Source of the DNA: an uncultured Nitrososphaerota archaeon
GTDB lineage: Archaea > Asgardarchaeota > Njordarchaeia > Njordarchaeales > Njordarchaeaceae
NCBI GenBank assembly: GCA_964518475.1
Contig: CAZFGR010000006.1
Location: 23,355 to 79,229 of the forward strand
Length of the DNA: 55,875 nt
Direction of reading: 5' to 3'
Positions within the stretch are counted from its first letter, which is position 1; every line of letters starts with the position of its first letter. The position numbers were made by a program, and so were the translations under genes. The notes beneath the pieces were generated by a model. That model was not told the DNA's origin and made no database searches. It saw only the letters and a list, made by a program, of their open reading frames with translations. Shown here piece after piece: positions 15,295 to 50,801 of this stretch.

Positions 15295-15555
15295 TCTAAT
15301 TCACCCCTACAATGACTGGGTTTCTATTCATAGTATATCATTAATGCTACATTAACTACTTAAACGTTTTTTGGATATATTGAGAGAATAGTAACGATTC
15401 ACGAGAAATGAAAGAAAATGCAATAATAAAAAGTTTTATGTATCATCCTCCACATATCTTAAAATTTTGAGAATGTAGAAAAATATCTCTACTAATTTTT
15501 TTGAGCTGATGCATTATTAAATAGTGAAAAAAGAGACATGTATCAGTTTATCTAC

Positions 15556-17226
15556 TTAAATGCCAATATTTATTGCCCTAGAAAGCACTCTGGATCCACG
15601 GTAATCAGGCAACAATATAGGTGCTTTCCTGTCAGTCTCTATTTTCTCCTTCTTCAATAGTTCTTCCCACTTTCTGACATGATCGAGAGTTAACTTACCC
15701 ACGCTTGCGTGTTTAATATGCTTAGCTGCGTATATTCCTGCTCTCCGACCGAATACGTTTATTTCTAAGAGACTATTACCCATTAGCCTATTTTTACCGT
15801 GTACTCCACCCGATACCTCGCCAGCAGCGAATAGTCCAGGAATAGGCTTGCCACCAGCATCTAATGCTTGCGCATAGACGTTTATCTCTACTCCGCCATT
15901 CATATAGTGCAGTGTTGGGAACACGAGTACCGGCTCCTTGGTCATGTCGATTCCGAATCTCATGAATTGCCTATACATCGCTGCTAAGTATCTCTTGATT
16001 GTGCCTTCTCCATGGATTATCTCGATCATCGGTGAATCAAGCCAGACTCCTCTCATACCAGTTGGTGTAATTACTCCCTTGTTTCTTCCATAGCACTCTC
16101 TAATAATGGCAGCAGCAACCACGTCTCTGGGCTCTAGTGGATAGATAAATTGTTCCCCCTCTGCATTTACTAGTTGAGCACCCAATCCTCTAACCTTTTC
16201 CGTAACTAGCTGTCCCACTATTTGCTCTGGATACGCTGCTCCCGTTGGGTGGTACTGTACGGAATCCATATTTACTAGGTGAGCACCGACTCTGTAAGCC
16301 ATTACTACCCCATCCATAGTTGCTCCGTAGTGGTTCGTTGTTGGGAATCCTTGGATATGCAATCTACCGAATCCTCCGGTCGCGAGGATGGTTGCTTTGG
16401 CTCTAACTATGAGATATTCCTTTGTCTCTAGGTTAACTAATACTGCTCCCGCTACCTGACCTCTATCATCCATTAACAATTCTACCGCTGGAGAAAATTC
16501 TAGGATAGGAATTTCTCTATTCAAGACCTCATCCATCAGAACACGCATTATCTCTAATCCCGTATAGTCCTTGGCAGCGTGTAGTCTTTTTCTACAAGTT
16601 CCTCCGCCAGACAATTCTATAAAGTTTCCTTCTTCGTCCTTATCATACATTATTCCGAGTTCCTCATGCCATTTAATTATTCTAAGCGCGTCCTCCACTA
16701 ACGCTCTGACGAGTTCTGGTTTATTGGCGTAGTGTCCTCCTCCCATAACATCTATGAAGTGAAGAACCGGACTATCATTAGGTCTATCAGCTGCTTGAAT
16801 ACCTCCCTGAGCCATTTTCGTGTTAGCGTCTCCGAATCGGAGCTTTGTGGCTAATAATATTCTATCTGCGGGTACTCCACTATAATTCGCCCATAGAGCA
16901 GCGGCTGCTCCCGCTCCTCCACCTCCTATTATGAGAATATCCACATCATAGTCTATTTGATTCAGTGATATCTCATCGGGATTAATTAAGGCATGCGCTT
17001 CTAGTAGATCAGCAACTTCGTTAGGAACAGGATCACCTTTATTAGGACCTATTCTAAGTTTTCTCTTACCCTCTGGTCTATAATCTGGATGCCATTTCTT
17101 CAATAGTTCCTCTTTCTCTTCGGGAGAGATTCTTCTATAAACCTCTTTTAAGCGCCTGTCCCTGGTTTCTTCTACTTTCTCGATGGATTCCCAAAACTCC
17201 TCGGGATAGCCCGGATACTTCTCCAT
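15556..17226 (-). CDS. Fumarate reductase/succinate dehydrogenase-like flavoprotein (soluble, TfrA-like)
   Basis: GGGGAG, T.MAQGG, QYHPTG, TE..RG, PRD, HY.NGG and HG.NRL.GNSL; start placed at ATG 17226 after GAGGTGA. Confidence 0.88.
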   Translation of the reverse strand: MEKYPGYPEEFWESIEKVEETRDRRLKEVYRRISPEEKEELLKKWHPDYRPEGKRKLRIGPNKGDPVPNEVADLLEAHALINPDEISLNQIDYDVDILIIGGGGAGAAAALWANYSGVPADRILLATKLRFGDANTKMAQGGIQAADRPNDSPVLHFIDVMGGGHYANKPELVRALVEDALRIIKWHEELGIMYDKDEEGNFIELSGGGTCRKRLHAAKDYTGLEIMRVLMDEVLNREIPILEFSPAVELLMDDRGQVAGAVLVNLETKEYLIVRAKATILATGGFGRLHIQGFPTTNHYGATMDGVVMAYRVGAHLVNMDSVQYHPTGAAYPEQIVGQLVTEKVRGLGAQLVNAEGEQFIYPLEPRDVVAAAIIRECYGRNKGVITPTGMRGVWLDSPMIEIIHGEGTIKRYLAAMYRQFMRFGIDMTKEPVLVFPTLHYMNGGVEINVYAQALDAGGKPIPGLFAAGEVSGGVHGKNRLMGNSLLEINVFGRRAGIYAAKHIKHASVGKLTLDHVRKWEELLKKEKIETDRKAPILLPDYRGSRVLSRAINIGI

Positions 17227-17249
17227 TTCACTCACCTCTTTCATATATC

Positions 17250-17957
17250 TTATTTTTCAATTTCTCTACTTTCATATAGTTTCTTCCACAATTCTGGCCC
17301 ACCCGTGACTAATTTGTCGAGTTCCTCCTTGAAAGCCCCAGCTTCCAAGGCCTTCAGTTTCTCCTCCAGATGCTTTGATTTCTTGGCTATGTATTTTCCA
17401 TACAGTCTCCTTACTAACTGGAAAACATGATAATGGACTATCTCAGCTGGACATCTCATTGAACAGATGCCGCATGCTATACAGTCGAATGTCATGTGGG
17501 CTGCTTTTTCGATATTGCCTCTAAGAATCTCTTGAACAGCGTCCATTACTTGTATTTCTTGTGGACACGATTTTGTACATGTATTGCAGGAAACGCATCT
17601 AGTGAGTTCTGGGAAAATGCTGATGACTACGGATCCCTCTGGTCTTAATTTCTCAATATCGTATATTGGTTTCTTGGCTGGTACGAATGGGATCATAACA
17701 AGATACATTCCATCTTTTATCGTTGTTTGACATGCTAATCCAGTGTATAGCTTATAGTCATCCTTTAGCCTATAAACTGTGGTGCAAGCCCCACAGAAAC
17801 CCGCTCTACAACCGACCCCTCTGATTAACCTATACCCTACATACTCTAGGGCCTTTAGAATTGTCAGACCTTCTGGTACTTCATATTTCTTTCCCATTAC
17901 ATATATTGTTACAGTTTTCATCTTAGGTTGCTTAGCAGCTACCTGCTCCTCAGCCAC
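17250..17957 (-). CDS. FrdB/SdhB-like Fe-S subunit ([2Fe-2S] + 2x[4Fe-4S])
   Basis: CRAGFCGAC...C, CVSCNTC...CP and CIACGIC...CP. Confidence 0.88.
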   Translation of the reverse strand: MAEEQVAAKQPKMKTVTIYVMGKKYEVPEGLTILKALEYVGYRLIRGVGCRAGFCGACTTVYRLKDDYKLYTGLACQTTIKDGMYLVMIPFVPAKKPIYDIEKLRPEGSVVISIFPELTRCVSCNTCTKSCPQEIQVMDAVQEILRGNIEKAAHMTFDCIACGICSMRCPAEIVHYHVFQLVRRLYGKYIAKKSKHLEEKLKALEAGAFKEELDKLVTGGPELWKKLYESREIEK

Positions 17958-18830
17958 TTATCCATCACCTCTAACAAGCTTAGTTAATTCTTCAACAATT
18001 TCTTTTTCAATAAGATTCTCTAACCCAAGGGAAAAAGCAAGAAGTTCGGTAAAATACAATAAAATAACTTTCTCTTTCAATTCTTTTCTAGCCATCTCAA
18101 GACCTTTTTCCAGGTTGTAGTGGCATAGAGGACAGGTAGTTACAATTATTTTAGCCTCCCTATTCAAAGCCCCTTGAATAATCTTTATAGCTCGCTCCTT
18201 AATCACCTCCGCATTATTGACAACGTGATAAGCCCCACAGCATTCTGTCTTAAACGGATAATCTATGGGTTCTCCGCCAAGAACTTCTACTAGATCATCC
18301 ATGATCGTGGGATCTTCTGGATCATCTATTCCAGTGTCCCTAGGCTTAACAAGCATACAACCATAATAGCATGCGACCTTTACGCCATTAAGCTGCTTCT
18401 TGACCTTCTCAGCTATTTTTTGGAAACCAATATCGTCTCTCAGTACCGTTAGGTAGTGTAAAACATTTATTTCTCCTAAATAATCTTCCTCATCGTCCAT
18501 GAACTTGTTAAGCTTCTCAAGAGCTTCCGGATCCTCCTTAAGGAGATTGTTCACTCTCTTAAGAACATGATAGCACATGGAACAGAGGGTGACCAAGTTC
18601 TTCGTCTTGACCTCTCTAGAAAATTCCTGAGCCCTTATGAGGTTTCTAGCCGGTGCTATATGATGAAAAACACTATCTTCCGCGAGCCCGAACACTACTC
18701 CGCAACAGTTCCAGCGCTTTAATTCAACCATTTCAAAACCAAGAGCTTTTGCCACCGCCAAAGCTGTTTTCTCATAGCGTTCTCCATAAGTCTTCATAGT
18801 GCAACCAGGATAGTACATGTATCTGATCAT
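17958..18830 (-). CDS. hdrB: Heterodisulfide reductase subunit B (two CCG domains)
   Basis: YYPGC, WNCCG, CSMC, YYGC, ECCG and CPLC. Confidence 0.92.
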   Translation of the reverse strand: MIRYMYYPGCTMKTYGERYEKTALAVAKALGFEMVELKRWNCCGVVFGLAEDSVFHHIAPARNLIRAQEFSREVKTKNLVTLCSMCYHVLKRVNNLLKEDPEALEKLNKFMDDEEDYLGEINVLHYLTVLRDDIGFQKIAEKVKKQLNGVKVACYYGCMLVKPRDTGIDDPEDPTIMDDLVEVLGGEPIDYPFKTECCGAYHVVNNAEVIKERAIKIIQGALNREAKIIVTTCPLCHYNLEKGLEMARKELKEKVILLYFTELLAFSLGLENLIEKEIVEELTKLVRGDG

Positions 18831-18837
18831 TTTCGCT

Positions 18838-19221
18838 TCACCCAGTCAATTTCCTAGACGCAGCAACCAATGCAATGGTCGGTAACTCCTCCACATTCTT
18901 AAGTTTCCTGAGATTGATCCTATCAATACCCCTTCTTAATGTAATCAAGCGTAACGCTTCCATTATCTTCGAAATATCCACGTCTCTAGGACATCTCACA
19001 GAGCAAGTAAAGCATGCAGCACAGATCCACGGAGTTTTCGCCAGTAAAACACTTTCGTCTCCCAGTTGAATCTTGTGAATAACAACGTTAGGCAATAGAT
19101 CCATATTACTAGTAAAGGGGCAGCTACCGGAACACTTTCCACATTGGTAGCAAGCATAAACATTCTGTCCACTAATCTGGAATACCTTCTCAGCTAATTC
19201 GTTTGGAAAAACTCCCTCCAT
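18838..19221 (-). CDS. hdrC: Heterodisulfide reductase subunit C
   Basis: CYQCGKCSGSCP and PWICAACFTCSVRCPR. Confidence 0.92.
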   Translation of the reverse strand: MEGVFPNELAEKVFQISGQNVYACYQCGKCSGSCPFTSNMDLLPNVVIHKIQLGDESVLLAKTPWICAACFTCSVRCPRDVDISKIMEALRLITLRRGIDRINLRKLKNVEELPTIALVAASRKLTG

Positions 19222-19692
19222 TCAACATCCCCTCAAATCATTATTAATGATTAGGGAAACGACTTTCTTAACAACTTTTTTGATTGGTTCTGAAATTTTT
19301 TCACCGAAAAAGGTGTTACGAGAAATATTTACAGCGTATACAATAACATCTTTTGGCACCTGATCCGGCAAGGCGTTCCTCAGCAGGTTATATGCTGTGA
19401 TTAAATCCACATTATGAGGAGAGAAAGTAGAAGGAGTCGTCGTTACCTCATTTATTCTGAACCTTATTACTTCCCCTTCTGCTAGGTTTTCTAATCTTAT
19501 AGAATCAATAATAACTGCTTTGTCATATCCTAAGCACTCTTCTAGCACTGAAAATGCATTACCTATCATTTTCTTCACGACCACATCTCCGCATCTTAGG
19601 CGCTTTTCCAGTTCCTCAGCAATGATTAGTCCTACTGAGTCGTCTCCTAGAAGATCGTTTCCTAAACCAATGACTATGGTTTTCATTTTCAC
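19222..19692 (-). CDS. [NiFe]-hydrogenase maturation protease
   Basis: GLGN.L.GDD.VG, IIDS and SPH motifs. Confidence 0.92.
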   Translation of the reverse strand: MKMKTIVIGLGNDLLGDDSVGLIIAEELEKRLRCGDVVVKKMIGNAFSVLEECLGYDKAVIIDSIRLENLAEGEVIRFRINEVTTTPSTFSPHNVDLITAYNLLRNALPDQVPKDVIVYAVNISRNTFFGEKISEPIKKVVKKVVSLIINNDLRGC

Positions 19693-21140
19693 TCCCTCCT
19701 AAGCACCTTGATAACTTCGCCTCTCTCGTTCTTTATAACCACTTTTAACGGAATACCTCCTGGTAAGCTATGAGTAGAGCATGCTAAGCAGGGATCATAC
19801 GCTCTGAAAGCCATTTCAACCATGTTGAGAATCTCGTCACTTACTTTACCATTGGTAATTAAGTGCTGTGCCGCTTTTTTCACATCCATGTTTATCGCTG
19901 GATTATTCTGCGTCGTCGGAATTACAAGGTTAACGAGAGTAACTATGCCGTTTGAGTCTGTTTCATAATGATGGTACAAGATTCCGCGGGGAGCTTCAAC
20001 AACTCCAACTCCTTTCCCAGAGAACTCGCCTTCATAGTTTACTATATCATCACTTGTTATTGCGTCATCACTGGCGAGCTCAACTATTCTTTCACTGGCA
20101 TAGAGCATCTCTATGACTCTGGCCCAGTGATATGCCATTGTATAGTGAGCTGGTTTACCTAGGGTCTCGATGTATTTCTCATAAGCCTCTTGTGCTTTCT
20201 CTGTGGCAAAACCATCTGCCACATTTAGCCGTCCTAGAGGTCCGACTCTATATATTCCACTCTCGGGCCCATCAACGAATCCTTTCCACCCAATGTTTTT
20301 TAGGTATGGGAATTTTGTGTAGCTCCACGGCTCTACTCTCTCCCTTATATAATCGAGATACTCAATGGGTCTAAACTTAGCAACTTCTCTTCCCTTCTGA
20401 TCCACAACTCTGATGTCTCCATCATAGAAGTTAACCTTGTTGTTTCTATCTACGAGACCCATGTAGTAAGTTTCGAGGTAGTACATATCCTTTTGGATAA
20501 ATAGTTTCTCATAATTTTTCAGAATCAAAGACTCGAATTTCTCTATCCATTCTTCAAAGAACTTTACCAGTTCCTTTCCCATTTCTAAAATTTCCTTTCT
20601 TTCCTCTTCCGTAAGCCTTTTGCTTACGCCTCCAGGTAATCCACAGACGGGATGAATCGATTTTCCTCCAATAATTTCCTCAATCTTTACAATATATTTC
20701 CTATGTTTAACAATATTCTTAACCAACTCTGGGTTCTTCTTGAACATCCCGATTACATTTCTTTCGGACCTAGGAGCTCCTGGCGATAAGATAAAATCTG
20801 GTATTGCTAGTATGTAGAAGTGCACCGTGTGGCTATCAATTATATGTGCACAGTAAGCTAGCTCCCGAATTTTCTTAGCTGTTTCTGTAGGTTCTCTACC
20901 GAATATTTCATCCAAAGCTTTCGTTGACGCCATGTGATGAGCCCATGGACATACTCCACATATTCTTGTAACAATCCTAGGCATCTCCTCAACTGGTCTG
21001 CCAACACAGAATTTTTCAAACCCCTTGAACTCCACCACGTGAAAGAAAGCTTCCTTGACTTTTCCCTCATCATCCAAGATTATAGTAATTTCTCCTTCTC
21101 CCTCCAGTCTAGATATTGGAAGAATCTTTATCTCTCTCAA
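19689..21140 (-). CDS. mvhA: Group 3c [NiFe]-hydrogenase large subunit
   Basis: RLEG, RICGVC (L1) and YDPCLACSTH (L2) followed by a cleavable tail. Confidence 0.93.
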   Translation of the reverse strand: MREIKILPISRLEGEGEITIILDDEGKVKEAFFHVVEFKGFEKFCVGRPVEEMPRIVTRICGVCPWAHHMASTKALDEIFGREPTETAKKIRELAYCAHIIDSHTVHFYILAIPDFILSPGAPRSERNVIGMFKKNPELVKNIVKHRKYIVKIEEIIGGKSIHPVCGLPGGVSKRLTEEERKEILEMGKELVKFFEEWIEKFESLILKNYEKLFIQKDMYYLETYYMGLVDRNNKVNFYDGDIRVVDQKGREVAKFRPIEYLDYIRERVEPWSYTKFPYLKNIGWKGFVDGPESGIYRVGPLGRLNVADGFATEKAQEAYEKYIETLGKPAHYTMAYHWARVIEMLYASERIVELASDDAITSDDIVNYEGEFSGKGVGVVEAPRGILYHHYETDSNGIVTLVNLVIPTTQNNPAINMDVKKAAQHLITNGKVSDEILNMVEMAFRAYDPCLACSTHSLPGGIPLKVVIKNERGEVIKVLRRE

Positions 21141-22135
21141 CCCTCACCCTCCTCTCTTTGTGTCTTATCGATTATTCCTCTACCAAGAGTAAAGCGGTAA
21201 AAGTATCCTACTGGGTCTGGAATTTCCTGAACTCTCTTTACTAATTCTTCATCACTCAAGCTTCTCTCTCGATCCACCTCAATAAGAGACGCGAGAGAAG
21301 TGATGAATTTAGCGCCTGGGTCTTTCACAGCAGGCGCTGGCCCCATACATCCTCTGCATGGCATATTAGCTTTGATACAGGGCAGACCACATCCACTTCT
21401 AGTGACCGGACCTAGGCATATAATCCCTTGGGCCAGAAAACATTTCTCAGGATCAACAGGTCCTTCATGAATTCTCCTAAATCTCCGGATCACTATTTTA
21501 TCTGGCTTTTCTCGCGGGCATTCATCACAGATAGTCTTTATATCTGCTAAGACTACTCCTCTCTCTGGCACTAAGCCATTCTCTATGTAGTCTTTAATTA
21601 CTTCGACTAGTTTTTCAAGCACCTTGTCTCTCGGTGGACATCCAGGGGCATAAACGTCCACGCTTACTAATTTGTCTAGGGGCATATTCCAGTCGATTAG
21701 CTCTGGGATTTTGATAATTATGTTATCGATTTTCACAAGTTCTCCAGGGAATTTCTTTTGCTCATTCTCAGTACTCGGCGTTAACAAATATCCCATTTCT
21801 AACAATTCCTTACGGAAGAATAAGTTTCCAAGTGCATAGATTCCTCCAAAGCAAGCACATGCTCCATAGGCTACTAAGATCTTTGCTTTCTTTCTAGCCA
21901 TTTTGAGAAGTTCCTCATGTGCTTTTGTCCTAATAGATCCTTCGAAAATCACTATATCTATGTGCTCTATTTTTTCCAAATCCTCCATTTTCTGATCAAT
22001 AGCTGTTGGCCAATAAACTATATCAACAAGCTCGGAAAGTTCTAAGAGTTTCTCATGAAGATTAACTAATGAAACATCACAGCCTCCGCATCCAGCACCC
22101 GGGCATACAGCTATTTTTATCTTTTCTTCAGCCAA
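21137..22135 (-). CDS. mvhG: Group 3c hydrogenase small subunit
   Basis: CGGC, GACA, PGCPP and C-terminal C..C...C/C.GP...C...C...CRGC clusters. Confidence 0.92.
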   Translation of the reverse strand: MAEEKIKIAVCPGAGCGGCDVSLVNLHEKLLELSELVDIVYWPTAIDQKMEDLEKIEHIDIVIFEGSIRTKAHEELLKMARKKAKILVAYGACACFGGIYALGNLFFRKELLEMGYLLTPSTENEQKKFPGELVKIDNIIIKIPELIDWNMPLDKLVSVDVYAPGCPPRDKVLEKLVEVIKDYIENGLVPERGVVLADIKTICDECPREKPDKIVIRRFRRIHEGPVDPEKCFLAQGIICLGPVTRSGCGLPCIKANMPCRGCMGPAPAVKDPGAKFITSLASLIEVDRERSLSDEELVKRVQEIPDPVGYFYRFTLGRGIIDKTQREEGEG

Positions 22136-22141
22136 TCATTA

Positions 22142-22558
22142 TCACCTCAGTTTCAAAGGACCCATTCTCTTTATTTCTTCAACAAACTCCTTGACGACTT
22201 CTGCAAATTTTCTACCCTCGGTAGCTGATATCCATTCAATTCGGACTCTCTTAGGATTGATACCCAGCTGCTCCAACAGTTTCTTAAGTAAGGCAATTCT
22301 TTTCAAAGCCTTGAAGTTTCCAGAGAAATAGTGACAATCATTTGGAGTGTGACAGCCAGCAATGAGTACTCCATCAGCCCCTTTTCTAAAAGCCTCTAGG
22401 ACGAACTGGACATCTAATCTTCCCGTACAGGGAATCTGAATCGTTACTATATTTGGAGGATACTCCAATCTACTAACACCAGCTAGATCAGCACCAGCGT
22501 ATCCACACCATTTACAGAGAAAACCAATTATTTTAGGTTCAAAATCATCGTTTTCCAA
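22142..22558 (-). CDS. mvhD: Hydrogenase [2Fe-2S] subunit D
   Basis: C.WC.Y.GADLAG, PCTGR, GC...DCHY..GN and WISA.EG. Confidence 0.94.
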   Translation of the reverse strand: MENDDFEPKIIGFLCKWCGYAGADLAGVSRLEYPPNIVTIQIPCTGRLDVQFVLEAFRKGADGVLIAGCHTPNDCHYFSGNFKALKRIALLKKLLEQLGINPKRVRIEWISATEGRKFAEVVKEFVEEIKRMGPLKLR

Positions 22559-22564
22559 GAATCA

Positions 22565-24511
22565 TCACCTACTCAAAACGGCCTCTATCATCGATAAGAT
22601 CTGTTCATCAGTGGTATTTCTTAGAGTAATAGCTCCAGAGGGGCATGCGGAAACACATATACCGCATCCTTCACACACGACTTCATTCACATTAGCGACA
22701 CGATTTGTTACTGAGACGGCCCCGAACGGACAGAGAGATTGACAAATGCCACAACCACTACAAGCATCTTCATTTACCTGAGCAATCGTTGGTTCGTGGT
22801 ATAGCCTATCCCTTGATAAAAGTGCAATAGCTTTAGCCGCAGCAGCACTAGCTTGTGCCACAGATTCAGATATATCCTTGGGAGCTTGAGCGGCTCCACA
22901 TACAAAGATTCCACTAGAAGGGCTCTCAACTGGTCTTAGCTTAGGATGAACCTCTTGGAAGAATCCATACTTATCGGTTGGGATTTTTAGCAGGGCTGCT
23001 AATTTTTTACTATCTTTTGACGGTACAATACCCATTGCCAGTACAACCATATCAACTGGTAACTCTATCTTCTCATTCGTCAATGTGTCTACTGCTTGAA
23101 CAATTAGTTTACCATTCTCTGGATACACTTTCGCAACTTTTCCTCGAATATAAACGACTCCGTACTCTTCCTGAACTCTCTTAATGAATTCTTCATAACC
23201 TTTACCAGCAGCTCTTATGTCGATGTAGAAGACATAGGCTTTACCATCGGGAACCAAGTGTTTATACAGCATCGCATGCTTCGCTGTATACATGCAACAG
23301 ATCTTAGAGCAATACTCCAGATGCTGAGAATCCCTAGAACCCACGCACTGTATAAATGCTATTGATTTAGGCACTTTTCCATCACTCGGTCTTCTAATTT
23401 CACCACCCGTGGGACCACTAGCAGATAATAACCTCTCGAACTGAAGCGAATCTATAACGTCTTCATATTTTCCGTAACCATACTCTCCGATCTTCTCTTT
23501 TGGATATAATTCATATCCAGTCGCAACAATAATAGCACCAACTTCTTCAACAATGTACTCGTCACCCATGTTAGGGTTTATAGCTTCTTGATCACAAGCC
23601 TCTATACATGCTCCACATGTGATAGGATTAAGGCCTAGACAGTGCTCTGGATCGATCACATATGCCGCTGGCACTGCTTGAGGGAATGGGATATAAATAG
23701 CTTTTCTGAGGCTTAATCCTCTATTAAATTCATCAATCACAATAACTGGGCAAGCATCTGCGCAATCTCCACATATATTACATTTATCCTCGATCACGTA
23801 TCTAGGTCTTTTATGAATTCTTACACGGAAGTTTCCTACGAAACCGTCAACTTCGACAACTTCGGCATTAGTATAAAGTTTGATATTAGGGTGTCTCGAA
23901 ACAGCCACCATTTTTGGGGTGAGAATACATTGAGCGCAGTCCAGAGTAGGAAATGTTTCCGCTAGTTGAGCCATACGGCCCCCGATTGTAGGGGATTTTT
24001 CAACTAAGATGACCTCAAATCCAGCATCGGCTACGTCAAGAGCTGCTTGAATCCCTGCTATTCCTCCACCTATCACTAAGCACTTCTTTTTGATCCCTAC
24101 ACTAACGGGTTCTAGTGGTTCGTTTCGAAGAACCTTCTCTATTATTGAGTAAACAATTTTAATAGCTTTTTGAGTGGCTTTCTCTTTGTCCTTATGAACC
24201 CATGAGCATTGCTCTCTAATATTAGCGATCTCACACATGTAGGGATTTAATCCAGCTTCCTGGCAAACCTTTCTAAAAGTTTCTTCATGCATCGTAGGTG
24301 TACAAGCGGCTACAATAACTCTCGTTAACCTATGCTCTACTATAGCTTTTTTGATCAGATTCTGTCCTGGATCCGAGCACATATATGCATAATCTGTGGC
24401 ATAAACAACGCTGGGATGCTTGGAAGCTTCCTCAGCAACTTTTTTTACGTCTACGGTTTCAGCTATATTCCTACCACAATGGCAAACGAATACTCCGATT
24501 CTTTCAGCCAT
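22565..24511 (-). CDS. hdrA: Heterodisulfide reductase subunit A (canonical, electron-bifurcating type)
   Basis: CHCG.NI, GGGIAG, TFPTLDCAQC, inserted ferredoxin, QFER, CS.ICCMY..K and C-terminal ferredoxin. Confidence 0.95.
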   Translation of the reverse strand: MAERIGVFVCHCGRNIAETVDVKKVAEEASKHPSVVYATDYAYMCSDPGQNLIKKAIVEHRLTRVIVAACTPTMHEETFRKVCQEAGLNPYMCEIANIREQCSWVHKDKEKATQKAIKIVYSIIEKVLRNEPLEPVSVGIKKKCLVIGGGIAGIQAALDVADAGFEVILVEKSPTIGGRMAQLAETFPTLDCAQCILTPKMVAVSRHPNIKLYTNAEVVEVDGFVGNFRVRIHKRPRYVIEDKCNICGDCADACPVIVIDEFNRGLSLRKAIYIPFPQAVPAAYVIDPEHCLGLNPITCGACIEACDQEAINPNMGDEYIVEEVGAIIVATGYELYPKEKIGEYGYGKYEDVIDSLQFERLLSASGPTGGEIRRPSDGKVPKSIAFIQCVGSRDSQHLEYCSKICCMYTAKHAMLYKHLVPDGKAYVFYIDIRAAGKGYEEFIKRVQEEYGVVYIRGKVAKVYPENGKLIVQAVDTLTNEKIELPVDMVVLAMGIVPSKDSKKLAALLKIPTDKYGFFQEVHPKLRPVESPSSGIFVCGAAQAPKDISESVAQASAAAAKAIALLSRDRLYHEPTIAQVNEDACSGCGICQSLCPFGAVSVTNRVANVNEVVCEGCGICVSACPSGAITLRNTTDEQILSMIEAVLSR

Positions 24512-24717
24512 CCTCAGCTACACCTTTCCAGACCATAAAGAAAGTGAAGAATAACCCAGTTTCTCTTGAAAAAACACGATCTATGCTCATTAAGGATTAT
24601 TCATATATATAAGGATAAGTTCTTATCCATGAAAATATTAACACGATAGAAATTTATATATCAGAGAATGATGTATATTCAGTAAATGCATAGATGTATA
24701 TACATAAACATCGCTCT

Positions 24718-25200: not shown

Positions 25201-25614
25201 GTGATTCTTTTGGAGATCTGTGAAATCTGTAACGAGAGAAAAGCGGAAACTATCTGTATTCGTTGCAGACGACCTATCTGCAGTAGCTGTGAGTCGCCAC
25301 AAGCTATGCTTTGCAAAGAGTGTTATGAATTTAAACGAGCTTTAGAGGAGCAAAGGGAATTAATGGTTAATTATATTGAGAAGATGACCAAGTTATCGTC
25401 TCTTAAATTGAAGAATTCTGAGTGTCTCCAGTGTAATATATTGCGTGAATTTTTATTATCTCTTTACAAGATGCTCAAAGAGCTCATAGATGAAGCTAAT
25501 AGAGAACTTTTCAACGAGGTTTTAAACAGAGGTAGAGAGATTGAAAAAAGGCTTAAAAAACTGCTTCTAACTGTGTTGACGTTGCAGGGACTGTCTATTA
25601 GTGAGAGAGATTAG
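25201..25614 (+). CDS. B-box-like zinc-finger protein with helical C-terminus
   Basis: CEIC..CIRC.R.IC..C...LC..C, plus a further CxxC inside a coiled-coil-like region. Confidence 0.7.
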   Translation: MILLEICEICNERKAETICIRCRRPICSSCESPQAMLCKECYEFKRALEEQRELMVNYIEKMTKLSSLKLKNSECLQCNILREFLLSLYKMLKELIDEANRELFNEVLNRGREIEKRLKKLLLTVLTLQGLSISERD

Positions 25615-26744
25615 CCGAAAACTGCTTTCTCTTCAATAAGCTTTCCTAGCTTTATTCTCTCGAAACTCAATCTTTCTGCTTGTGGAATTGATGGTTTTCC
25701 ATCAATTATCCATTCCGCAAGCACCTTCCCGACGATTGGAGCCATCATAAACCCGTGTCCACTAAAACCTGTCGCCACGTATAGTCCAGTTATGTTTTCT
25801 AATGGACCTAGGATGGGATGTCTATCAGGGCTCATCACATAGTATCCAGTCCAGTATCTCAGAATATTCACATGCTTAAGCCATGGGAAGAGCTTTACCA
25901 TTATTCTTACCGCTCTTGGAATATAGTCTATCCTCTGAGTAGCGGGGGAATCTGGTTCTTCCTCTACATCGGCCCCTATCAAGAAAGTTCCAGCATGCGT
26001 TTGAACTATGTAGCTACTTGTTGTCCAGTCTATTACCAGGGGTTTAAAAACTTCCCGAAACTTCTCCGTCACTAATGCATGTCTCGGTACGTTTTTGAGG
26101 GGTAGATTAATACCTACTGTTCTAGCTAGTTCTCTTGAGCCATATCCAGCTGCTATAACCACGTTTGAAGATTCGATTTCACCAATCGATGTTTTGACCC
26201 CTTTTACTTTATTATTCTCTACAATTATTTTCTCAACCCTCGTCTGAGTACAGATTTTGGCTCCCATGCTCCTAATTGCTTTTGCAAGGGATAAGACGGC
26301 TTCAAAGGGATCAGCTTTACCAGCTAATGGGTCATGAAGACCTCCTATAATGCCATTAGTATTTATTGTTGGGACAAGCTCTTTTATCTCCTCTGGTTGT
26401 ACTATTCTTGTGGGAACACCGTACTTGTTATGGATTTTTGAATACTCTGTAAACGCTTTTAACTGCTCCTCTGTTCTTAGTAACCATACATAACCGCTAC
26501 GTGAATAGAAAAAGTTCAGTTTCTCTGATAATTCCTTCCAGAGGTTGATACTTTCCCTGAGGAGAACTATGTGCTCCTCTGTTGTGAATGATGCTCTTAT
26601 TCCCGTTGCACATCTGAAGGTTCCGCCGCTTCCAAGATAGTTCTGCTCTACGAGTACTAAATCTTTGTGACCCATGGTAGCCAGATAATAAGCTATGGAA
26701 AGACCTACTATTCCACCGCCTATGATTACAGTCTCACTCCTCAT
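25611..26744 (-). CDS. Dye-linked L-proline dehydrogenase/sarcosine oxidase beta-like FAD subunit
   Basis: IIGGGIVG, GGTFRCATGIR, W.G.Y.MSPD.HP and GFSGHGFMMAP. Confidence 0.9.
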   Translation of the reverse strand: MRSETVIIGGGIVGLSIAYYLATMGHKDLVLVEQNYLGSGGTFRCATGIRASFTTEEHIVLLRESINLWKELSEKLNFFYSRSGYVWLLRTEEQLKAFTEYSKIHNKYGVPTRIVQPEEIKELVPTINTNGIIGGLHDPLAGKADPFEAVLSLAKAIRSMGAKICTQTRVEKIIVENNKVKGVKTSIGEIESSNVVIAAGYGSRELARTVGINLPLKNVPRHALVTEKFREVFKPLVIDWTTSSYIVQTHAGTFLIGADVEEEPDSPATQRIDYIPRAVRIMVKLFPWLKHVNILRYWTGYYVMSPDRHPILGPLENITGLYVATGFSGHGFMMAPIVGKVLAEWIIDGKPSIPQAERLSFERIKLGKLIEEKAVFG

Positions 26745-27039
26745 CCTTTTCCCCTCCACCTAGGAATATTTTTGCAGGGATTGGTGATATCGGTGGTCGG
26801 GGCTTAGGGATTAGAAGCTCATCGGGTCTTTTCTTTAGCTTTCTCGCGAGCAGTCTTATCACAACTGGTAAGCATGTCCTCCCTTGACACGGACCCATTC
26901 CGATTCTCAATTTTCTTTTAAGCGTTTCTAAGTCAGTTATTCCTTCCTTGATGGCCTCCTCTATTTGCTCAAGCGTAACGTTTTCACACCTACATATTAT
27001 GACTGGGTGTTCCTTATTCTTTACTTCTTCCCTACCCAT
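26734..27039 (-). CDS. BFD-like [2Fe-2S] subunit of the proline dehydrogenase-like complex
   Basis: ICRCE...GMGPCQGRTC...RPP. Confidence 0.9.
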   Translation of the reverse strand: MGREEVKNKEHPVIICRCENVTLEQIEEAIKEGITDLETLKRKLRIGMGPCQGRTCLPVVIRLLARKLKKRPDELLIPKPRPPISPIPAKIFLGGGEKDEE

Positions 27040-27521
27040 ATCGCCCTCACCTCAAAAACTAATTCTTTGGGCACTTCTACGGTTACCACATAGGTCTTGT
27101 TACGCTCGAAAACTCGAACTACCTTTCCCGTACCTAAGGTTCTGCCATCTTTTCCCAACAGGGTGACTTCCTCGCCTTTCTTCGGTGCTGGTAAGAATTC
27201 GTGGGGCACTGTTACGTATCCCTTATCTTCCTGAGAGAGGTCAATGACAAAGATCGCTAATCCGGGACAAAGAGCTACACAAGTAGCGCATCCCACACAT
27301 TTATTCCAGTCCACTTTTGGTATGTCTGTTATAGAATTCATTGAAATAGCCCCGTAGGGACATGCGCTTACGCAAATATTACATGGTATTCTTTCGGGGC
27401 ACTCTATAAGCACTACTGGACCTTTTTTTAACCTTTCTTCTGGAGGCAATAGTCCGAGCTCTTTAATTACTTCAAGAGGAATTATACCATTTACTCTGTA
27501 GGGGGGAATTTCCTTATTCAT
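27021..27521 (-). CDS. 4Fe-4S ferredoxin subunit of the proline dehydrogenase-like complex
   Basis: ECP..IPCN.C...CP and CVGC..C...CPGLAIF; start placed at ATG 27521. Confidence 0.88.
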   Translation of the reverse strand: MNKEIPPYRVNGIIPLEVIKELGLLPPEERLKKGPVVLIECPERIPCNICVSACPYGAISMNSITDIPKVDWNKCVGCATCVALCPGLAIFVIDLSQEDKGYVTVPHEFLPAPKKGEEVTLLGKDGRTLGTGKVVRVFERNKTYVVTVEVPKELVFEVRAIWVGKK

Positions 27522-28974
27522 AACACTCACCCTCCGTAAGCAATACTTTCTTAATACCTTCTCTAACACGAGCTAAAAGAGGAGACTGACGATACTCATC
27601 AAGAATCTTAACGAGTTTCTCTCGCTCTTCCACAGCTTTGGGGATTTCTCCTTTCACTTTAATAACCGCTGATAATGCGGCTATTTGTCCCTCTAGCATA
27701 GCAACTGTTGCTTCTTCGATTCCCTTAACATCCCCAGCTATAAATACTCCAGGTACAGTGGTTTCCATATATTTGGTTCTGTACGCTACTAAACCACCCA
27801 GTTCTGATACCCAAGCCATCTTGGCGCCAGTCTGAGCTAGGAGACTAGCGTCTGGTGTGAGACCGACAGCGAGTAGGACTAAATCGCATTCAATATCTTT
27901 CTCTGTTCCAGGAATAGGCTGAAAGTTTTCATCTACTTGAACTATTGTTGCGCCCTCTACACGGTCTTTTCCCCAAACTCTCTTTATTGTATGTCTTGTG
28001 AAAATCGGTATCCCGTACCTCCTCACTTTTGCAGCATGAACTGCCCAACCTCCTATTTGGGGCATTATTTCAACGATTCCTTTTACGTTTACGCCAGCTT
28101 GGAGAAGCTGATAAGCTATTATTAACCCAACGTTCCCAGCACCTACAACGAGAGCATTATTCCCTGGTCTTACCCCGTATTCATTCATTAAGGTTTGTGC
28201 ACCACCAGCCCCCATCACTCCTGGCAAATCGTTTCCTGGGAATGCTAGGTAATTCTCGTGAGCACCAGTTGCGAAAATCATTGTTTTTGCTCTAACCCTA
28301 TAATGCTTGTTTTTCGATGCTAATCCTACCCATCCATCTCTGAATACTCCGTAAGCAATGGTCTCGGTAAGTACCTTAATATTCTCGTTATTCAATACCT
28401 TATCCGCTAACATCTCAGCAATCTGGAAACCTCTGAGACCACCAAAAAGCTCTTTTGATCCAAAAAATTTATGCGTTTGTTTAACTAGTTGACCTCCGAG
28501 TCTAAAATGATCTTCTACAAGAAGAACATTTAGGCCGTATTCTGCTGCTTTGAGAGCTGCAGAAAGACCAGCCGGTCCTCCCCCTATAATTAAGACATCC
28601 GTTTCTAACACTTCCTCCTCAGGAGACTCGCCTTCCTCTCGAACTTCTGGTATAGAGGGTAATCCTCTTTGACGAAATACTTGTAGCCCCTCTCTCACAG
28701 GTTCTCTGCACGTTCTTGTATTTGGAACCCCATTTACGACCATGAAACAACTACTGCACTTTCCTATCATACAAAAGGCTCCTCTAGGTCGTCCTTGTGG
28801 AGTCCAAGACAATATGTCTATTCCAGAAGCATAGAGAGCTATTGCTATCGACTCGTTCTCATAACCCTCTACTTCTTTTCCCTCGAAATAGAACTTGACT
28901 TTTTTACCGCGTTTAAATTCTAGAATTGGATGAGCCCATATTCTCCTATCAACTCCATTACTCGCACTTGGCAA
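27514..28974 (-). CDS. Proline dehydrogenase/sarcosine oxidase alpha-like subunit ([2Fe-2S] + FAD/NAD oxidoreductase)
   Basis: RPRG.FCMIGKCSSC...RTC, GGGPAG, GGQL.KQTHKFFG and GAGNVG. Confidence 0.9.
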   Translation of the reverse strand: MPSASNGVDRRIWAHPILEFKRGKKVKFYFEGKEVEGYENESIAIALYASGIDILSWTPQGRPRGAFCMIGKCSSCFMVVNGVPNTRTCREPVREGLQVFRQRGLPSIPEVREEGESPEEEVLETDVLIIGGGPAGLSAALKAAEYGLNVLLVEDHFRLGGQLVKQTHKFFGSKELFGGLRGFQIAEMLADKVLNNENIKVLTETIAYGVFRDGWVGLASKNKHYRVRAKTMIFATGAHENYLAFPGNDLPGVMGAGGAQTLMNEYGVRPGNNALVVGAGNVGLIIAYQLLQAGVNVKGIVEIMPQIGGWAVHAAKVRRYGIPIFTRHTIKRVWGKDRVEGATIVQVDENFQPIPGTEKDIECDLVLLAVGLTPDASLLAQTGAKMAWVSELGGLVAYRTKYMETTVPGVFIAGDVKGIEEATVAMLEGQIAALSAVIKVKGEIPKAVEEREKLVKILDEYRQSPLLARVREGIKKVLLTEGECYE

Positions 28975-46421: not shown

Positions 46422-47393
46422 TCACAATATGTAGGCCCTTACAATAACTGCTAAGAGAGCCTGCAACACGGCTAGAGGCGTGATTGCTTTCCAGAATCCT
46501 CTAAGAACATGATCGATCCTATACCTAGCCATAATAGCCTCAACTAATGAAACGATGAAAACCAATATGATCAGCTTAACCAAGAACCACACGAAATACA
46601 TTATTGGACCAAAAACATCTACGAAGGGCCCATAGCCTCCTCCTAGGTATAGAGCTACGCACAGACTTATTGCTAGTAAGAGTTCTAAATCCATGCTTAA
46701 TCTGTAGAAAGCAAGTCTTCGTCCACTAAGCTCTACCTGCCAACCACCAGCTATCTCCGTCTCGGCTTCTGCAATATCGAATGGTACCCTCTCTGTTTTG
46801 GCCATCGTGCTTATTAGCATTATGACGAATCCTAATGGAGCGTAGATGAAGATTGGTCCATATACTGTCTGGAATCGTGCAATATCCGCAATTATTGTAG
46901 AGCCAGCTATTAAGGCGGCTGACGCTATAGAGAGCACGTATGATATTTCAAATGATATTGTTAGCTCAGCGTACCTGGCTGAGCCTACTATGGCATAGGG
47001 GCTAGGAGTAACATATCCCGTCAACACGATTAGTGTGGCGAATATTGCTGAGAGACCAATGATGAATATGAGGTCTCCTGGATAGCTTAAGATTGGTTCT
47101 GGCGAGAAGATTGGTATGAACATTAGAGAGAAGGTAACTAAAGATGCTTGAAGAATGGGGATTATTGTTAATAATAGTTTGTCCGCGCCAGTGGGGGTTA
47201 TTTCTTCCTTACTCATAAGTTTTAAAAAGTCCGCTAATGGTTGCAGAAAACCTTTTGGTCCCGTAACCAATGGCCCTATCCTTGACTGCATCCTTGCAAC
47301 AAATTTTCTCTCAAGCCACTCTACAATAAACGCAAATATCATGAAGATAGGAATTAGTACTACTATCACGTATTCCATAGTCCTCCCTCTCAT
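46422..47393 (-). CDS. NuoH/HycD-like membrane subunit
   Basis: ERK..ARMQSRIGP, QPLADFLKL..KE and R.PFD.AEAE.E. Confidence 0.93.
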   Translation of the reverse strand: MRGRTMEYVIVVLIPIFMIFAFIVEWLERKFVARMQSRIGPLVTGPKGFLQPLADFLKLMSKEEITPTGADKLLLTIIPILQASLVTFSLMFIPIFSPEPILSYPGDLIFIIGLSAIFATLIVLTGYVTPSPYAIVGSARYAELTISFEISYVLSIASAALIAGSTIIADIARFQTVYGPIFIYAPLGFVIMLISTMAKTERVPFDIAEAETEIAGGWQVELSGRRLAFYRLSMDLELLLAISLCVALYLGGGYGPFVDVFGPIMYFVWFLVKLIILVFIVSLVEAIMARYRIDHVLRGFWKAITPLAVLQALLAVIVRAYIL

Positions 47394-47704
47394 TCTTTAG
47401 GTGCTAGTAAAAGGGCTAGCAGAATTATCAGAATGTAGATTAATGGAAGAACTATCAACACTCCAGCTCCAAATGCTAGAAGTACTAGCAGACCAGCTGT
47501 TTCAAAAGCCGTGAACAGACTAACGTAATAAATCCACTTTATCCTGTAAGGTACTCTCATCGGATGATATTTCTCTCCACTTACGAATGGGAGAAGAGCC
47601 TCCCTCTTCTTTCCCTTCCTCTCGCCCTTTCCTAGACTATACAAAATGGCGAAGAATACCACAATTATAATAAACGCTATAGCGAGATCCCAGAACGTAA
47701 CCAT
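47390..47704 (-). CDS. NuoA-like membrane subunit
   Basis: TM, PF.SGE loop, Y...F..FE, then 2 TM helices. Confidence 0.7.
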   Translation of the reverse strand: MVTFWDLAIAFIIIVVFFAILYSLGKGERKGKKREALLPFVSGEKYHPMRVPYRIKWIYYVSLFTAFETAGLLVLLAFGAGVLIVLPLIYILIILLALLLAPKE

Positions 47705-47753
47705 TTAAAATCACCCTTTCAATAATTCTCTATCGCCATGGAAAAATTAGTTA

Positions 47754-48098
47754 TCAGATTCTAAGTTCGTCTTTCTTGATAATTGCAGTGTGGTAATTCT
47801 TGGTAAAACTGATTGCCTTAGTGGGACAAATCTCGATACAAGAGCCACAGAAAACGCATTTTGATAGATCGAATGAGGGTCTCTTTTTTGTTTTTGTTCT
47901 CTCATCAGGAACCATTGTTATTACTTGTGTAGGACATACACGTGCACAAGAGCCGCATCCAATGCATTTCGAAATATCAAACATTAATACCCCTCTATAG
48001 CCGTCGGGAACAGGTGTCTCTTTCATAGGATACGGTAGAGTAGCTGGCTTCCGAACAAAGCTTTTAAGGGCTTCTTTAAATAGTACTCCCCAAGACAT
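47754..48098 (-). CDS. NuoI/HycF-like 2x[4Fe-4S] subunit
   Basis: T..YP.....P..YRG, CIGCGSC...CP and CVFCGSC...CP. Confidence 0.92.
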   Translation of the reverse strand: MSWGVLFKEALKSFVRKPATLPYPMKETPVPDGYRGVLMFDISKCIGCGSCARVCPTQVITMVPDERTKTKKRPSFDLSKCVFCGSCIEICPTKAISFTKNYHTAIIKKDELRI

Positions 48099-49304: not shown

Positions 49305-49314
49305 AGTTCTTCAC

Positions 49315-50189: not shown

Positions 50190-50207
50190 ACAAGCACCCA
50201 TAGAATA

Positions 50208-50510: not shown

Positions 50511-50801
50511 TTACCCGTATCGGTAATGAACACCAAAGCCTCCTCTGGGATTGTTCCATTTAACAGCTCCTAGAGGACAGACTATTCTACATGATCCGCA
50601 CTCTAAACAACCTTCATAATTAAACATTATCTCTCCATTCTCTAGCTTATATAGGTTGGCTGGACAAGCATATATGCATGGTTTTCCTTCGCACTTTTTA
50701 CAGATCTCCTTGTCTACGATAATGTGCGGTTCCTTATCTATTTCGAAGTTTACTAGAGCTAGTCTTTCATCAATACTTAACTTCTTCTCAAGCGTGCTCA
50801 T
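50511..50801 (-). CDS. fixX: FixX-like ferredoxin
   Basis: C..C..KPC...CPA, CLECGSCR..CP and W..PRGG.GV.YRYG. Confidence 0.92.
   Translation of the reverse strand: MSTLEKKLSIDERLALVNFEIDKEPHIIVDKEICKKCEGKPCIYACPANLYKLENGEIMFNYEGCLECGSCRIVCPLGAVKWNNPRGGFGVHYRYG

Follow-up and report, generated by a model that had tools for sequence, protein, structure and literature searches.

Nine minus-strand genes at positions 24511-15556 of the window, hdrA-mvhD-mvhG-mvhA-protease-hdrC-hdrB-frdB'-frdA', form an operon that encodes, with a probability we put at about 0.62, one soluble enzyme bifurcating electrons from H2 to ferredoxin and fumarate, with a direct wire to the latter through HdrB. The window is the whole stretch of DNA analysed, 55,875 nt of contig CAZFGR010000006.1 (assembly GCA_964518475.1). 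Bifurcation from H2 to ferredoxin and fumarate had already been proposed in a preliminary description of this DNA, and as a prediction it is supported by synteny, catalytic residues, gene neighbours and the genome inventory. The features, all on the minus strand, are:

24512..24717, minus strand: AT-rich upstream spacer of 206 bp, 5' of hdrA, likely promoter region (read from sequence)
22565..24511, minus strand: hdrA, 648-aa FAD/Fe-S flavoprotein, presumed electron-bifurcating subunit
22142..22558, minus strand: mvhD, 138-aa [2Fe-2S] adaptor from hydrogenase to HdrA (PF02662 FlpD, 179.7 bits, full length)
21137..22135, minus strand: mvhG, small subunit of a group 3c-type [NiFe]-hydrogenase (PF01058; NCBIfam VhuG, 212.8 bits)
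19689..21140, minus strand: mvhA, [NiFe]-hydrogenase large subunit (NCBIfam VhuA, 430 bits)
19222..19692, minus strand: hydrogenase maturation endopeptidase (TIGR00072, 86.5 bits, above the cut-off of 47.45)
18838..19221, minus strand: hdrC, short 127-aa 2x[4Fe-4S] relay subunit (TIGR03290, 74 bits; Fer4_8/Fer4_17; 8 Cys)
17958..18830, minus strand: hdrB, two CCG domains (PF02754 x2), i.e., two non-cubane [4Fe-4S] sites
17250..17957, minus strand: frdB', 235 aa, N-terminal [2Fe-2S] domain, two CxxCxxCxxxCP motifs, helical tail, no CCG
15556..17244, minus strand: frdA', 562-aa fumarate-reductase-type flavoprotein (PF00890, 261 bits, residues 102-492)
15480..15555, minus strand: T-rich stretch directly 3' of the frdA' stop codon, likely archaeal terminator region (read from sequence)

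Pfam and NCBIfam agree with each of the nine gene assignments. The contiguous run had been described before, and its order, strand and coordinates stand; the gaps, given as about 0-25 bp, are in fact -4 to +7 bp, the successive junctions from hdrA to frdA' being +6, +6, -4, -4, 0, +7, 0, and +5 bp when longest-ORF starts are used. Junctions this tight would not accommodate a promoter of frdB'A' alone. No TM-like segment was detected in any operon protein (maximum Kyte-Doolittle 19-residue mean below 1.6). Downstream of frdA', the next ORF is separated by 260 bp of AT-rich sequence that includes a T-run; it encodes a small soluble protein without Pfam match; therefore, there is no membrane anchor gene either in the operon or as the next downstream ORF, as had been noted previously.

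All six MvhADG-HdrABC subunit types are encoded together, as judged from Pfam and NCBIfam, the CCG cysteines and the RxCGxC and DPCxxCxxH motifs of MvhA (RICGVC at residue 59 and DPCLACSTH at residue 449, the latter followed by a C-terminal extension). HdrA contains Pfam Pyr_redox_2 and Fer4 domains and three CxxCxxCxxxC motifs; it scores 876 bits with NCBIfam HdrA2 (cut-off 1100) and 686 bits with HdrA, both under the curated cut-offs. The HdrC score does not reach the equivalog cut-off of 160, nor does HdrB reach that of its NCBIfam model (162.6 bits vs. 345). The HdrB profile nevertheless gives full-length matches to solved HdrB chains of methanogens (E 1e-51 to 1e-60), and all 10 CCG cysteines are invariant in 27 Frd-linked HdrBs. 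Overall, the operon resembles methanogen MvhAGD-HdrABC (PDB 5ODC, 8RVU, 9SFI) in its six subunit types, complete CCG cysteines and intact [NiFe] motifs, but differs from it in the three Hdr subunits scoring under equivalog cut-offs, in the short HdrC, in the two extra subunits, FrdB' and FrdA', encoded after hdrB, and in its genomic context. In one methanogen with a Frd cluster, a second, divergent HdrB is also encoded (394 vs. 175 bits), which indicates that the Frd-linked HdrB forms a subtype of its own.

With a completeness of 91% and a contamination of 5.8%, the host genome allows only provisional statements on absences. Neither mcrA (TIGR03256) nor ComA (PF02679) was found in it, while the controls were matched; for these two markers, the lack of methanogenesis genes pointed out earlier for the window extends genome-wide. 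CoM-S-S-CoB was rejected as the Hdr substrate on the basis of these two absences.

FrdB' shows the motif order of the SdhB/FrdB type, a [2Fe-2S] domain (Pfam Fer2/Fer2_4) followed by two cluster motifs (Fer4_9), and its 12 cluster cysteines are invariant. By sequence, it is only a distant SdhB relative: it scores 33 bits on TIGR00384 (cut-off 88), gives weak TfrB and dhsB matches, and no SdhB was found among the PDB matches of its sequence profile. The top Foldseek match of its AF2 model is E. coli FrdB, full length over 244 columns, but with a TM of 0.29. That FrdB' lacks CCG domains and abuts hdrB had been recognised from the start, together with an analogy to methanogen TfrB. Indeed, Pfam detects no CCG domain in FrdB', and of the fused TfrB model in NCBIfam, the N-terminal part is matched by FrdB' and the C-terminal one by HdrB; no longer fused relatives of FrdB' were found. 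The thiol:fumarate reductase TfrAB of Methanothermobacter, reportedly characterised by Heim et al. in 1998 (cited in PMC6315080), is likewise soluble and joins HdrB-type CCG domains to the Fe-S subunit of a fumarate reductase; TfrB is, however, one fused protein, whereas here frdB' and hdrB are distinct genes and stand in reverse order.

FrdA' belongs to the SdhA/FrdA superfamily: it has the FAD_binding_2 domain, the catalytic His of the HPT motif, the Thr-Glu...Arg element, the proton-donor Arg and the second His and Arg. All dicarboxylate-site residues of SdhA/FrdA/Fcc3 are retained, and the catalytic H332, T348, E349, R352, R373, H446, and R486 are invariant. The AF2 model (pTM 0.83) finds its best structural matches among fumarate reductases. 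The protein begins with a conserved 98-aa extension and is devoid of the C-terminal helical domain (Succ_DH_flav_C; no PF02910 match, 32 residues after the FAD domain). Its best NCBIfam family score is with TfrA, 334 bits where the cut-off is 718, matching model positions 6-425 of 546; compared with TfrA it lacks the last ~120 model positions and gains the N-terminal extension. We therefore rejected FrdA'B' as a TfrAB equivalog, given this score, the unmatched C-terminal domain and an FrdB' without CCG fusion. Full-length SdhA/TfrA-like paralogues share 31-36% identity with FrdA'.

The flavoprotein might act on a substrate other than fumarate, e.g., as an L-aspartate oxidase or on another enoate or dicarboxylate, the Hdr link then serving a different reduction. 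NadB models score 265 bits, near the 279 bits of the generic SdhA/FrdA model and with none at its cut-off, and FrdA' is distinguished by unique regions at both termini and by four residues inserted behind HPT. We consider this very improbable: the fumarate-site residues are all invariant, the NadB scores lie below that of TfrA, and the neighbours in other genomes handle fumarate and succinate. In particular, a role as L-aspartate oxidase appears unlikely because a search of the 91%-complete genome revealed no NadA (PF02445), while 12 of 14 controls were matched.

The position of the His that carries covalent 8-alpha-histidyl FAD is occupied in FrdA' by Asn141, and this Asn is invariant in a 20-sequence alignment; the RSH histidine is kept in 4 of the 6 SdhA/TfrA-like paralogues examined from other archaea. 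E. coli FrdA His44 mutants, in which the covalent link is lost, have a lower flavin potential and no longer oxidise succinate, and members of the SdhA/FrdA family with non-covalent flavin are poor succinate oxidisers. The substitution thus points to reduction as the predicted direction of FrdA'. In the reverse direction, succinate and reduced ferredoxin would be confurcated to H2, serving amino-acid (glutamate) fermentation through 2-oxoglutarate, succinyl-CoA, succinate, fumarate, malate, and pyruvate. Kor, SucCD, fumarase and malic enzyme could run oxidatively and Mvh-type hydrogenases are in principle reversible; such a direction has been proposed for the 'TfrA' of Culexarchaeia, succinate oxidation to H2 becoming feasible above 65°C (PMC9723716). 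On the other hand, besides the invariant Asn, the potentials of succinate/fumarate and ferredoxin average, by our own estimate, well above that of H+/H2 unless H2 and fumarate are very low, and a cultured organism with an analogous operon excretes succinate (PMC7282089). Reverse operation thus seems improbable to us.

Members of the FrdA' family are present in at least 596 species genomes, archaeal as well as bacterial. Its synteny was counted in 80 loci from different species, with assessable loci as denominators; the proteins of P. thermosuccinogenes, Endoriftia, and Celaenobacter are not among them. FrdB' adjoins FrdA' in 76/77 loci and HdrB lies directly upstream (hdrB-frdB'-frdA') in 50 of the 69 assessable ones, being not adjacent in the other 19. 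Since this adjacency recurs in different species, the arrangement is not due to chance, and the synteny on which the preliminary reading depended holds in both domains. HdrC is next to HdrB in 50/50 of these loci and HdrA is within the locus in 42/50, so that hdrC-hdrB-frdB'-frdA' with hdrA is conserved across archaeal and bacterial phyla. Mvh is present in 22 of 50 loci with full upstream flank, and Flx-type genes, FrhB-like in 12 loci and PyrK-like in 10, are confined to loci without MvhA: the donor modules are interchangeable and exclusive, either Mvh or a Flx-like set, never both. Recurrent neighbours of FrdA' are 2-oxoacid:ferredoxin oxidoreductase (30-33 loci), class I fumarase (19-20), malic enzyme (14), and SucCD, succinyl-CoA synthetase (10-13).

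From these data we infer complex formation, bifurcation, its direction and the direct wire through HdrB. MvhAG would oxidise H2 and pass electrons via MvhD to the bifurcating FAD of HdrA. One branch would reduce ferredoxin; the other would lead from HdrC through the two non-cubane clusters of HdrB to FrdB' ([4Fe-4S], [4Fe-4S], [2Fe-2S]) and the non-covalent FAD of FrdA', where fumarate would be reduced to succinate. The predicted net reaction is 2 H2 + fumarate + Fd(ox) -> succinate + Fd(red, 2e-) + 2 H+, fumarate (E0' ~ +30 mV) taking the role of the CoM-S-S-CoB of methanogens.

Alternatively, the same net reaction could proceed through a diffusible or bound thiol intermediate instead of a continuous wire: MvhADG-HdrABC would reduce a low-molecular-weight or protein disulfide, and HdrB(C)-FrdB'-FrdA', as a split thiol:fumarate reductase, would re-oxidise the thiols. 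HdrB can be aligned with its methanogen counterpart along the entire length and keeps the full CCG cysteine set of the heterodisulfide-reducing site, methanogen TfrB is such an FrdB plus CCG arrangement, with both halves of its model matched here, and in some loci hdrCB occurs twice, next to Mvh and again next to frdB'A' (L002, L017, L058, L059). However, the host genome has exactly one FrdA', one FrdB' and one HdrB, with no second HdrB found, and the operon copy would have to serve both assemblies. Furthermore, the operon offers no candidate thiol carrier, ComA was not found in the genome, and hdrA accompanies hdrCB-frdB'A' even without hydrogenase, suggesting one complex. We thus regard a thiol cycle as unlikely, albeit a serious competitor of the direct wire; with all ten cysteines of the disulfide-reducing site retained in HdrB, thiol/disulfide chemistry may still be involved.

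A Hdr-linked soluble fumarate reductase is not a new concept, having already been published for bacteria (PMC7282089, PMC6315080, PMC8542988), and the novelty implied by the preliminary description was overestimated. The 'succinate operon' of P. (Pseudoclostridium) thermosuccinogenes, a cultured succinate producer, comprises fumarase, Flx-Hdr and fumarate reductase, is expressed and was read in the same way (PMC7282089), a proposal traced to a 2019 preprint of Koendjbiharie and van Kranenburg as cited there. Tubeworm symbionts carry flxABCD-hdrABC-korABCD-tfrAB (2019; PMC6315080, PMC11636981) and Cloacimonadota (Ca. Celaenobacter, 2021) a TFR-OGOR-fumarase-SCS-Mvh-Hdr cluster, likewise with a group 3c Mvh hydrogenase (PMC8542988). 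In the literature on these cases, all interpreted as bifurcation to fumarate and ferredoxin, we found no biochemical test. By gene layout, our operon is of the same kind, an anchor-less frdA/frdB-like pair contiguous with hdrC-hdrB and joined to hdrA and a donor module, and in the loci of our survey both Mvh-type and Flx-like versions surround the same FrdA' family. Unlike the bacterial clusters, the archaeal (Njordarchaeales-like) copy is cut to nine core genes; no TCA gene lies inside the operon in this window, whereas many relatives have one. Type E succinate:quinone reductases and MFR (SdhABE) also combine an SdhAB-type pair with an HdrB-like two-CCG subunit, and the HdrB of the window reaches 125 bits with the SdhE model of MFR vs. 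162.6 bits with the HdrB model; these enzymes, however, are membrane-associated and quinone-linked, with no link to HdrA or hydrogenase (PMC2754724).

Elsewhere in the host genome we found Kor, FumAB, malic enzyme, and SucCD; citrate synthase and aconitase were not found in this 91%-complete genome. The sole TCA segment found is malic enzyme, fumarase, Frd, succinyl-CoA synthetase and 2-oxoacid:ferredoxin oxidoreductase, and in this order the bifurcating enzyme would feed it, the last step using up ferredoxin reduced by bifurcation. A group-4 hydrogenase module is also present within the window, and surplus reduced ferredoxin could pass to this membrane-bound enzyme. Fumarate would thus probably serve as electron sink and so allow ferredoxin to be reduced with H2 in a non-methanogenic archaeon.

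The stretch is part of contig C6 (bases 23355–79229) of an assembly of 2.33 Mb in 121 contigs, with a completeness of 91% and a contamination of 5.8%. The closest protein relatives carry the labels Candidatus Njordarchaeales or Njordarchaeia, and one related locus belongs to Ca. Njordarchaeum guaymaensis. Between positions 24511 and 15556, nine ORFs follow one another on the minus strand, with junctions of +6, +6, −4, −4, 0, +7, 0, and +5 bp.

ORFs of the operon (24511–15556), assigned with Pfam and NCBIfam
ORF 1, minus strand, HdrA
ORF 2, minus strand, MvhD (FlpD, 180 bits)
ORF 3, minus strand, MvhG
ORF 4, minus strand, MvhA (motifs RICGVC and DPCLACSTH)
ORF 5, minus strand, hydrogenase maturation protease
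ORF 6, minus strand, HdrC, short
ORF 7, minus strand, HdrB, with two CCG domains
ORF 8, minus strand, FrdB′, a 235-aa Fe-S protein
ORF 9, minus strand, FrdA′, a 562-aa FAD_binding_2 flavoprotein

The preliminary description had noted that the operon has no membrane anchor gene and that its FrdB-like protein is devoid of CCG domains. Both points hold, as TM-like segments are found in none of the nine proteins, the first ORF downstream encodes a small soluble protein without Pfam match, and the domain assignment of FrdB′ includes no CCG. The operon is preceded by a 206-bp AT-rich spacer 5′ of hdrA and followed by a T-rich stretch 3′ of frdA′; a scan for sigma-70 promoters and intrinsic terminators, whose model does not cover archaeal signals, returned sites no more commonly than in shuffled sequence. 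Just upstream (25611–28974, minus strand) lies a gene set encoding a DAO-type FAD oxidoreductase, a BFD-like [2Fe-2S]/sarcosine-oxidase A3 protein, a 2x[4Fe-4S] ferredoxin and a Pyr_redox_2 protein with an N-terminal Fer2_4 domain, a make-up like that of heterotetrameric sarcosine-oxidase or proline-dehydrogenase-type enzymes.

Residues 100–512 of FrdA′ align to SdhA, FrdA, and flavocytochrome c3, and the catalytic set is retained, namely H332 (in an HPT motif), T348, E349, R352, R373, H446, and R486; none of these residues varies among 20 aligned sequences. The protein carries a conserved, confidently modelled N-terminal extension of 98 aa, and its C-terminus is reduced to about 30 residues as compared to the C-terminal domain of about 115–145 residues in SdhA/TfrA. 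Orthologues share at least 59% identity across archaea and bacteria. The histidine that binds FAD covalently in SdhA/FrdA is replaced by an invariant asparagine (Asn141). Family members whose FAD is bound non-covalently work as fumarate reductases and are poor succinate oxidisers. A complex working in reverse, by confurcating succinate oxidation, is disfavoured both by the probably non-covalent flavin of FrdA′ and by thermodynamics.

Several other archaeal genomes with FrdA′ also encode full-length SdhA/TfrA-like paralogues (31–36% identity to FrdA′), and the RSH motif is retained in four of the six paralogues examined. At loci L097–L100 (genomes G048, G043, G068, and G035, from the phylum sampled around G031), at least three genomes possess both an RSH-type SdhA/TfrA-like flavoprotein, with its C-terminal domain present, and an Asn-type FrdA′; at L097, an HdrB-like gene adjoins the SdhA/TfrA-like gene.

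FrdB′ contains a plant-type [2Fe-2S] motif (C50, C55, C58, and C76) and two CxxCxxCxxxCP motifs, all invariant among 27 orthologues. It is only a distant relative of SdhB: the NCBIfam scores are 45 bits for TfrB and 33 bits for dhsB, and a FrdB′ profile run against PDB sequences matched generic ferredoxin domains only, SdhB not being among the matches. The AF2 model (pTM 0.65) has E. coli FrdB as its top Foldseek match, which spans the full length but has a TM of only 0.29. In methanogens, the TfrB subunit of thiol:fumarate reductase is a FrdB-type domain fused to HdrB-type CCG domains. One part of the TfrB model is matched by FrdB′ and the other by HdrB, which provides an argument of the Rosetta-stone type for the docking of FrdB′ on HdrB. 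Prediction of the HdrB–FrdB′ complex gave a median ipSAE of 0.28 against a mark of 0.32, a value that carries no weight on binding either way. A search for longer, fused FrdB′ relatives found none, which is weak evidence. At loci without adjacent hdrB (L013, L015, L024, L050, L054, and L065), FrdB′ tends to be called as a longer ORF (257–293 aa vs. about 230–240 aa).

When a single genome of each species was scanned, at least 596 genomes were found to encode the FrdA′ family, and the best 80 loci were retained. Their archaeal carriers include Asgard lineages, Bathyarchaeia, Thermoplasmatota, Theionarchaea, Methanofastidiosum, and Thermoproteota; the bacterial ones include Bipolaricaulota/Acetothermia, Thermotogae, Chloroflexota, Bacillota (among them Desulfofundulus thermobenzoicus, which is in culture), WOR-3, and Spirochaetota. 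In the lineage of the operon itself, FrdA′ is present in five of six other genomes of the genus and six of seven others of the order, with a patchy distribution in the phylum. Among the best 80 loci, FrdB′ adjoins FrdA′ in 76 of 77 and HdrB lies directly upstream of FrdB′ in 50 of 69, HdrC adjoining this HdrB in every case (50/50); where the upstream flank is complete, HdrA is found in 42 and MvhA in 22 of 50 loci. Clustering of the remaining ORFs identified as recurrent neighbours the three subunits of a 2-oxoacid:ferredoxin oxidoreductase (30–33 of the 80 loci), class I fumarase alpha and beta (19–20), malic enzyme (14), and succinyl-CoA synthetase beta (13) and alpha (10), the typical layout being korABG-hdrA-mvhDGA-(protease)-hdrCB-frdB′A′.

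Twelve of these loci (L015, L016, L024, L049, L050, L057, L062, L066, L068, L070, L071, and L073) carry, between mvhD and the Hdr-Frd genes, a FrhB-like Fe-S protein, often together with a PyrK-like NAD(P)H/FAD protein (PyrK-like genes are seen in 10 of the 80 loci); both are NADH-dehydrogenase components of the Flx type. Since these genes occur only where MvhA is absent, and the two donors never co-occur among the best 80 loci, the donor module is swapped on a constant acceptor side (HdrA, HdrC, HdrB, FrdB′, and FrdA′). This is the pattern expected of a single modular enzyme.

In the 91%-complete genome, searches for mcrA, ComA, NadA, citrate synthase, aconitase, and Rnf found none of them, all these absences being provisional; for mcrA and ComA, this carries the lack of methanogenesis genes that the preliminary description had noted in the window over to the whole genome. 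The following enzymes are encoded outside the window's contig.

Contig C5, Kor-type oxidoreductase
Contig C13, FumAB
Contig C24, malic enzyme
Contig C3, SucCD

HdrB, FrdA′, and FrdB′ were each found as a single copy. The genome's other CCG proteins were rejected as a second HdrB. They are encoded in LutABC-like clusters and in FAD-oxidase-linked (GlcF-like) ones, except for a third, single-CCG protein, whose gene lies beside that of an MFS transporter. Separate from the operon, at C24:15914–19300 (L087) and C24:10793–12118, a GlpA-like (DAO + BFD) and GlpB-like (partial FAD_binding_2) pair is followed by an adjoining HdrC-like ORF, some 5 kb away from the gene for malic enzyme; the pair is probably an anaerobic glycerol-3-phosphate dehydrogenase.

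For a genome in which one HdrB and no CoM pathway were found, the simpler model is a direct wire from HdrB to FrdB′. Alternatively, a bound or soluble thiol/disulfide intermediate may operate between Hdr and the fumarate reductase, given that HdrB has all its disulfide-site cysteines and can be aligned to methanogen HdrB from one end to the other. Some genomes have two hdrCB pairs. In a methanogenic Methanofastidiosum sp. (G032), a Frd-linked Mvh-Hdr cluster and a second hdrA-hdrC-hdrB-mvhD-protease cluster are present (L106 on its contig C14 and L107 on its C20), and the two HdrBs score 394 and 175 bits, respectively, on a profile of Frd-linked HdrB. The divergence of the second set shows the Frd-linked HdrB to be a subtype of its own.

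The preliminary description had read the operon as a system bifurcating electrons of H2 to ferredoxin and fumarate (or a similar acceptor). The recurrent hdrB-frdB′-frdA′ synteny, the TCA-enzyme neighbours and the catalytic residues of FrdA′ all support this proposal, and H2-driven flavin-based bifurcation, with fumarate in place of the heterodisulfide, is the best-supported reading. Electrons would pass from H2 through MvhAG and MvhD to the FAD of HdrA, and from there, on one branch, to ferredoxin and, on the other, through HdrC, HdrB, FrdB′, and the FAD of FrdA′ to fumarate. The pathway pieces present fit a reductive malate-to-2-oxoglutarate route, and the ferredoxin produced per fumarate reduced would equal that required by the oxoacid synthase. 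Any reduced ferredoxin left over could power a group-4 membrane hydrogenase, which could thus re-oxidise the ferredoxin of the Hdr-Frd complex.

46422–50201, minus strand, group-4 membrane-bound [NiFe]-hydrogenase or complex-I-like module (NuoB-like, NuoC-like, NiFeSe_Hases-matching large subunit, NuoI-like ferredoxin, NuoH-like membrane subunit)
50798–55232, minus strand, acyl-CoA dehydrogenase, EtfB, EtfA and FixC/ETF-QO-like flavoprotein as consecutive genes, immediately 5′ of those for the membrane hydrogenase

A second large subunit is encoded on contig C14 of the same genome; the acyl-CoA dehydrogenase-Etf-FixC-like row may be a further electron-bifurcating set.

The same reading has been put forward before. 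The cultured succinate producer P. thermosuccinogenes expresses a 'succinate operon' of fumarase, Flx-Hdr, and fumarate reductase, which is described as a unique fumarate reductase coupled to ferredoxin reduction (PMC7282089, citing a preprint of Koendjbiharie and van Kranenburg from 2019). In tubeworm symbionts, FlxABCD-HdrABC, KorABCD, and TfrAB were proposed to form an electron-shuttling complex (Rubin-Blum et al., 2019; PMC6315080), and co-expression data were later added (Mitchell et al., 2024; PMC11636981). A functional link was likewise inferred for a Ca. Celaenobacter cluster with TFR, OGOR, fumarase, succinyl-CoA synthetase, group 3c Mvh, and Hdr (Williams et al., 2021; PMC8542988), and an archaeal homologue was annotated as TfrA, without a link to Mvh-Hdr, in the Culexarchaeia paper (PMC9723716). 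Our literature searches found no biochemical characterisation of an Hdr-linked fumarate reductase, although such a study may exist. The operon is real, and is a new archaeal example, with a predicted function, of a kind of enzyme already proposed. Particular to the present analysis are the single HdrB in a 91%-complete genome in which no Mcr, CoM, or NadA genes and only the C4–C5 segment of the TCA cycle were found, the invariant asparagine that stands in FrdA′ in place of the histidine for covalent FAD, and the strict exclusivity of Mvh or Flx donors around a constant Hdr-Frd core in the best 80 loci.

Outside the methanogens, HdrABC-MvhADG genes have a wide distribution that takes in Asgard archaea, Bathyarchaeia, Thermoplasmatota, and many bacterial phyla, and genome papers usually give their acceptor as 'an unknown disulfide'. 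Conserved physical linkage to a fumarate reductase points instead to a definite acceptor that can be tested; the value added by this window is modest, being one more archaeal example, but with a clean genome-level argument. Tentatively, and at somewhat less than even odds, we propose that the HdrB of FrdA′-linked clusters no longer reduces disulfides and that its pair of non-cubane clusters acts only as a relay from the bifurcating flavin of HdrA to the fumarate reductase. If so, fumarate would be the long-sought high-potential Hdr acceptor in Asgard-related and many other non-methanogenic anaerobes, and the complex would be a self-balanced H2-driven engine for the segment from fumarate to 2-oxoglutarate, one reduced ferredoxin being made per fumarate reduced and one used per succinyl-CoA carboxylated. 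If the fumarate link is true, the oxidation of H2 (or NADH) would be coupled to ferredoxin reduction without quinones or membranes, with a bearing on 2-oxoglutarate synthesis and energy conservation in such archaea.
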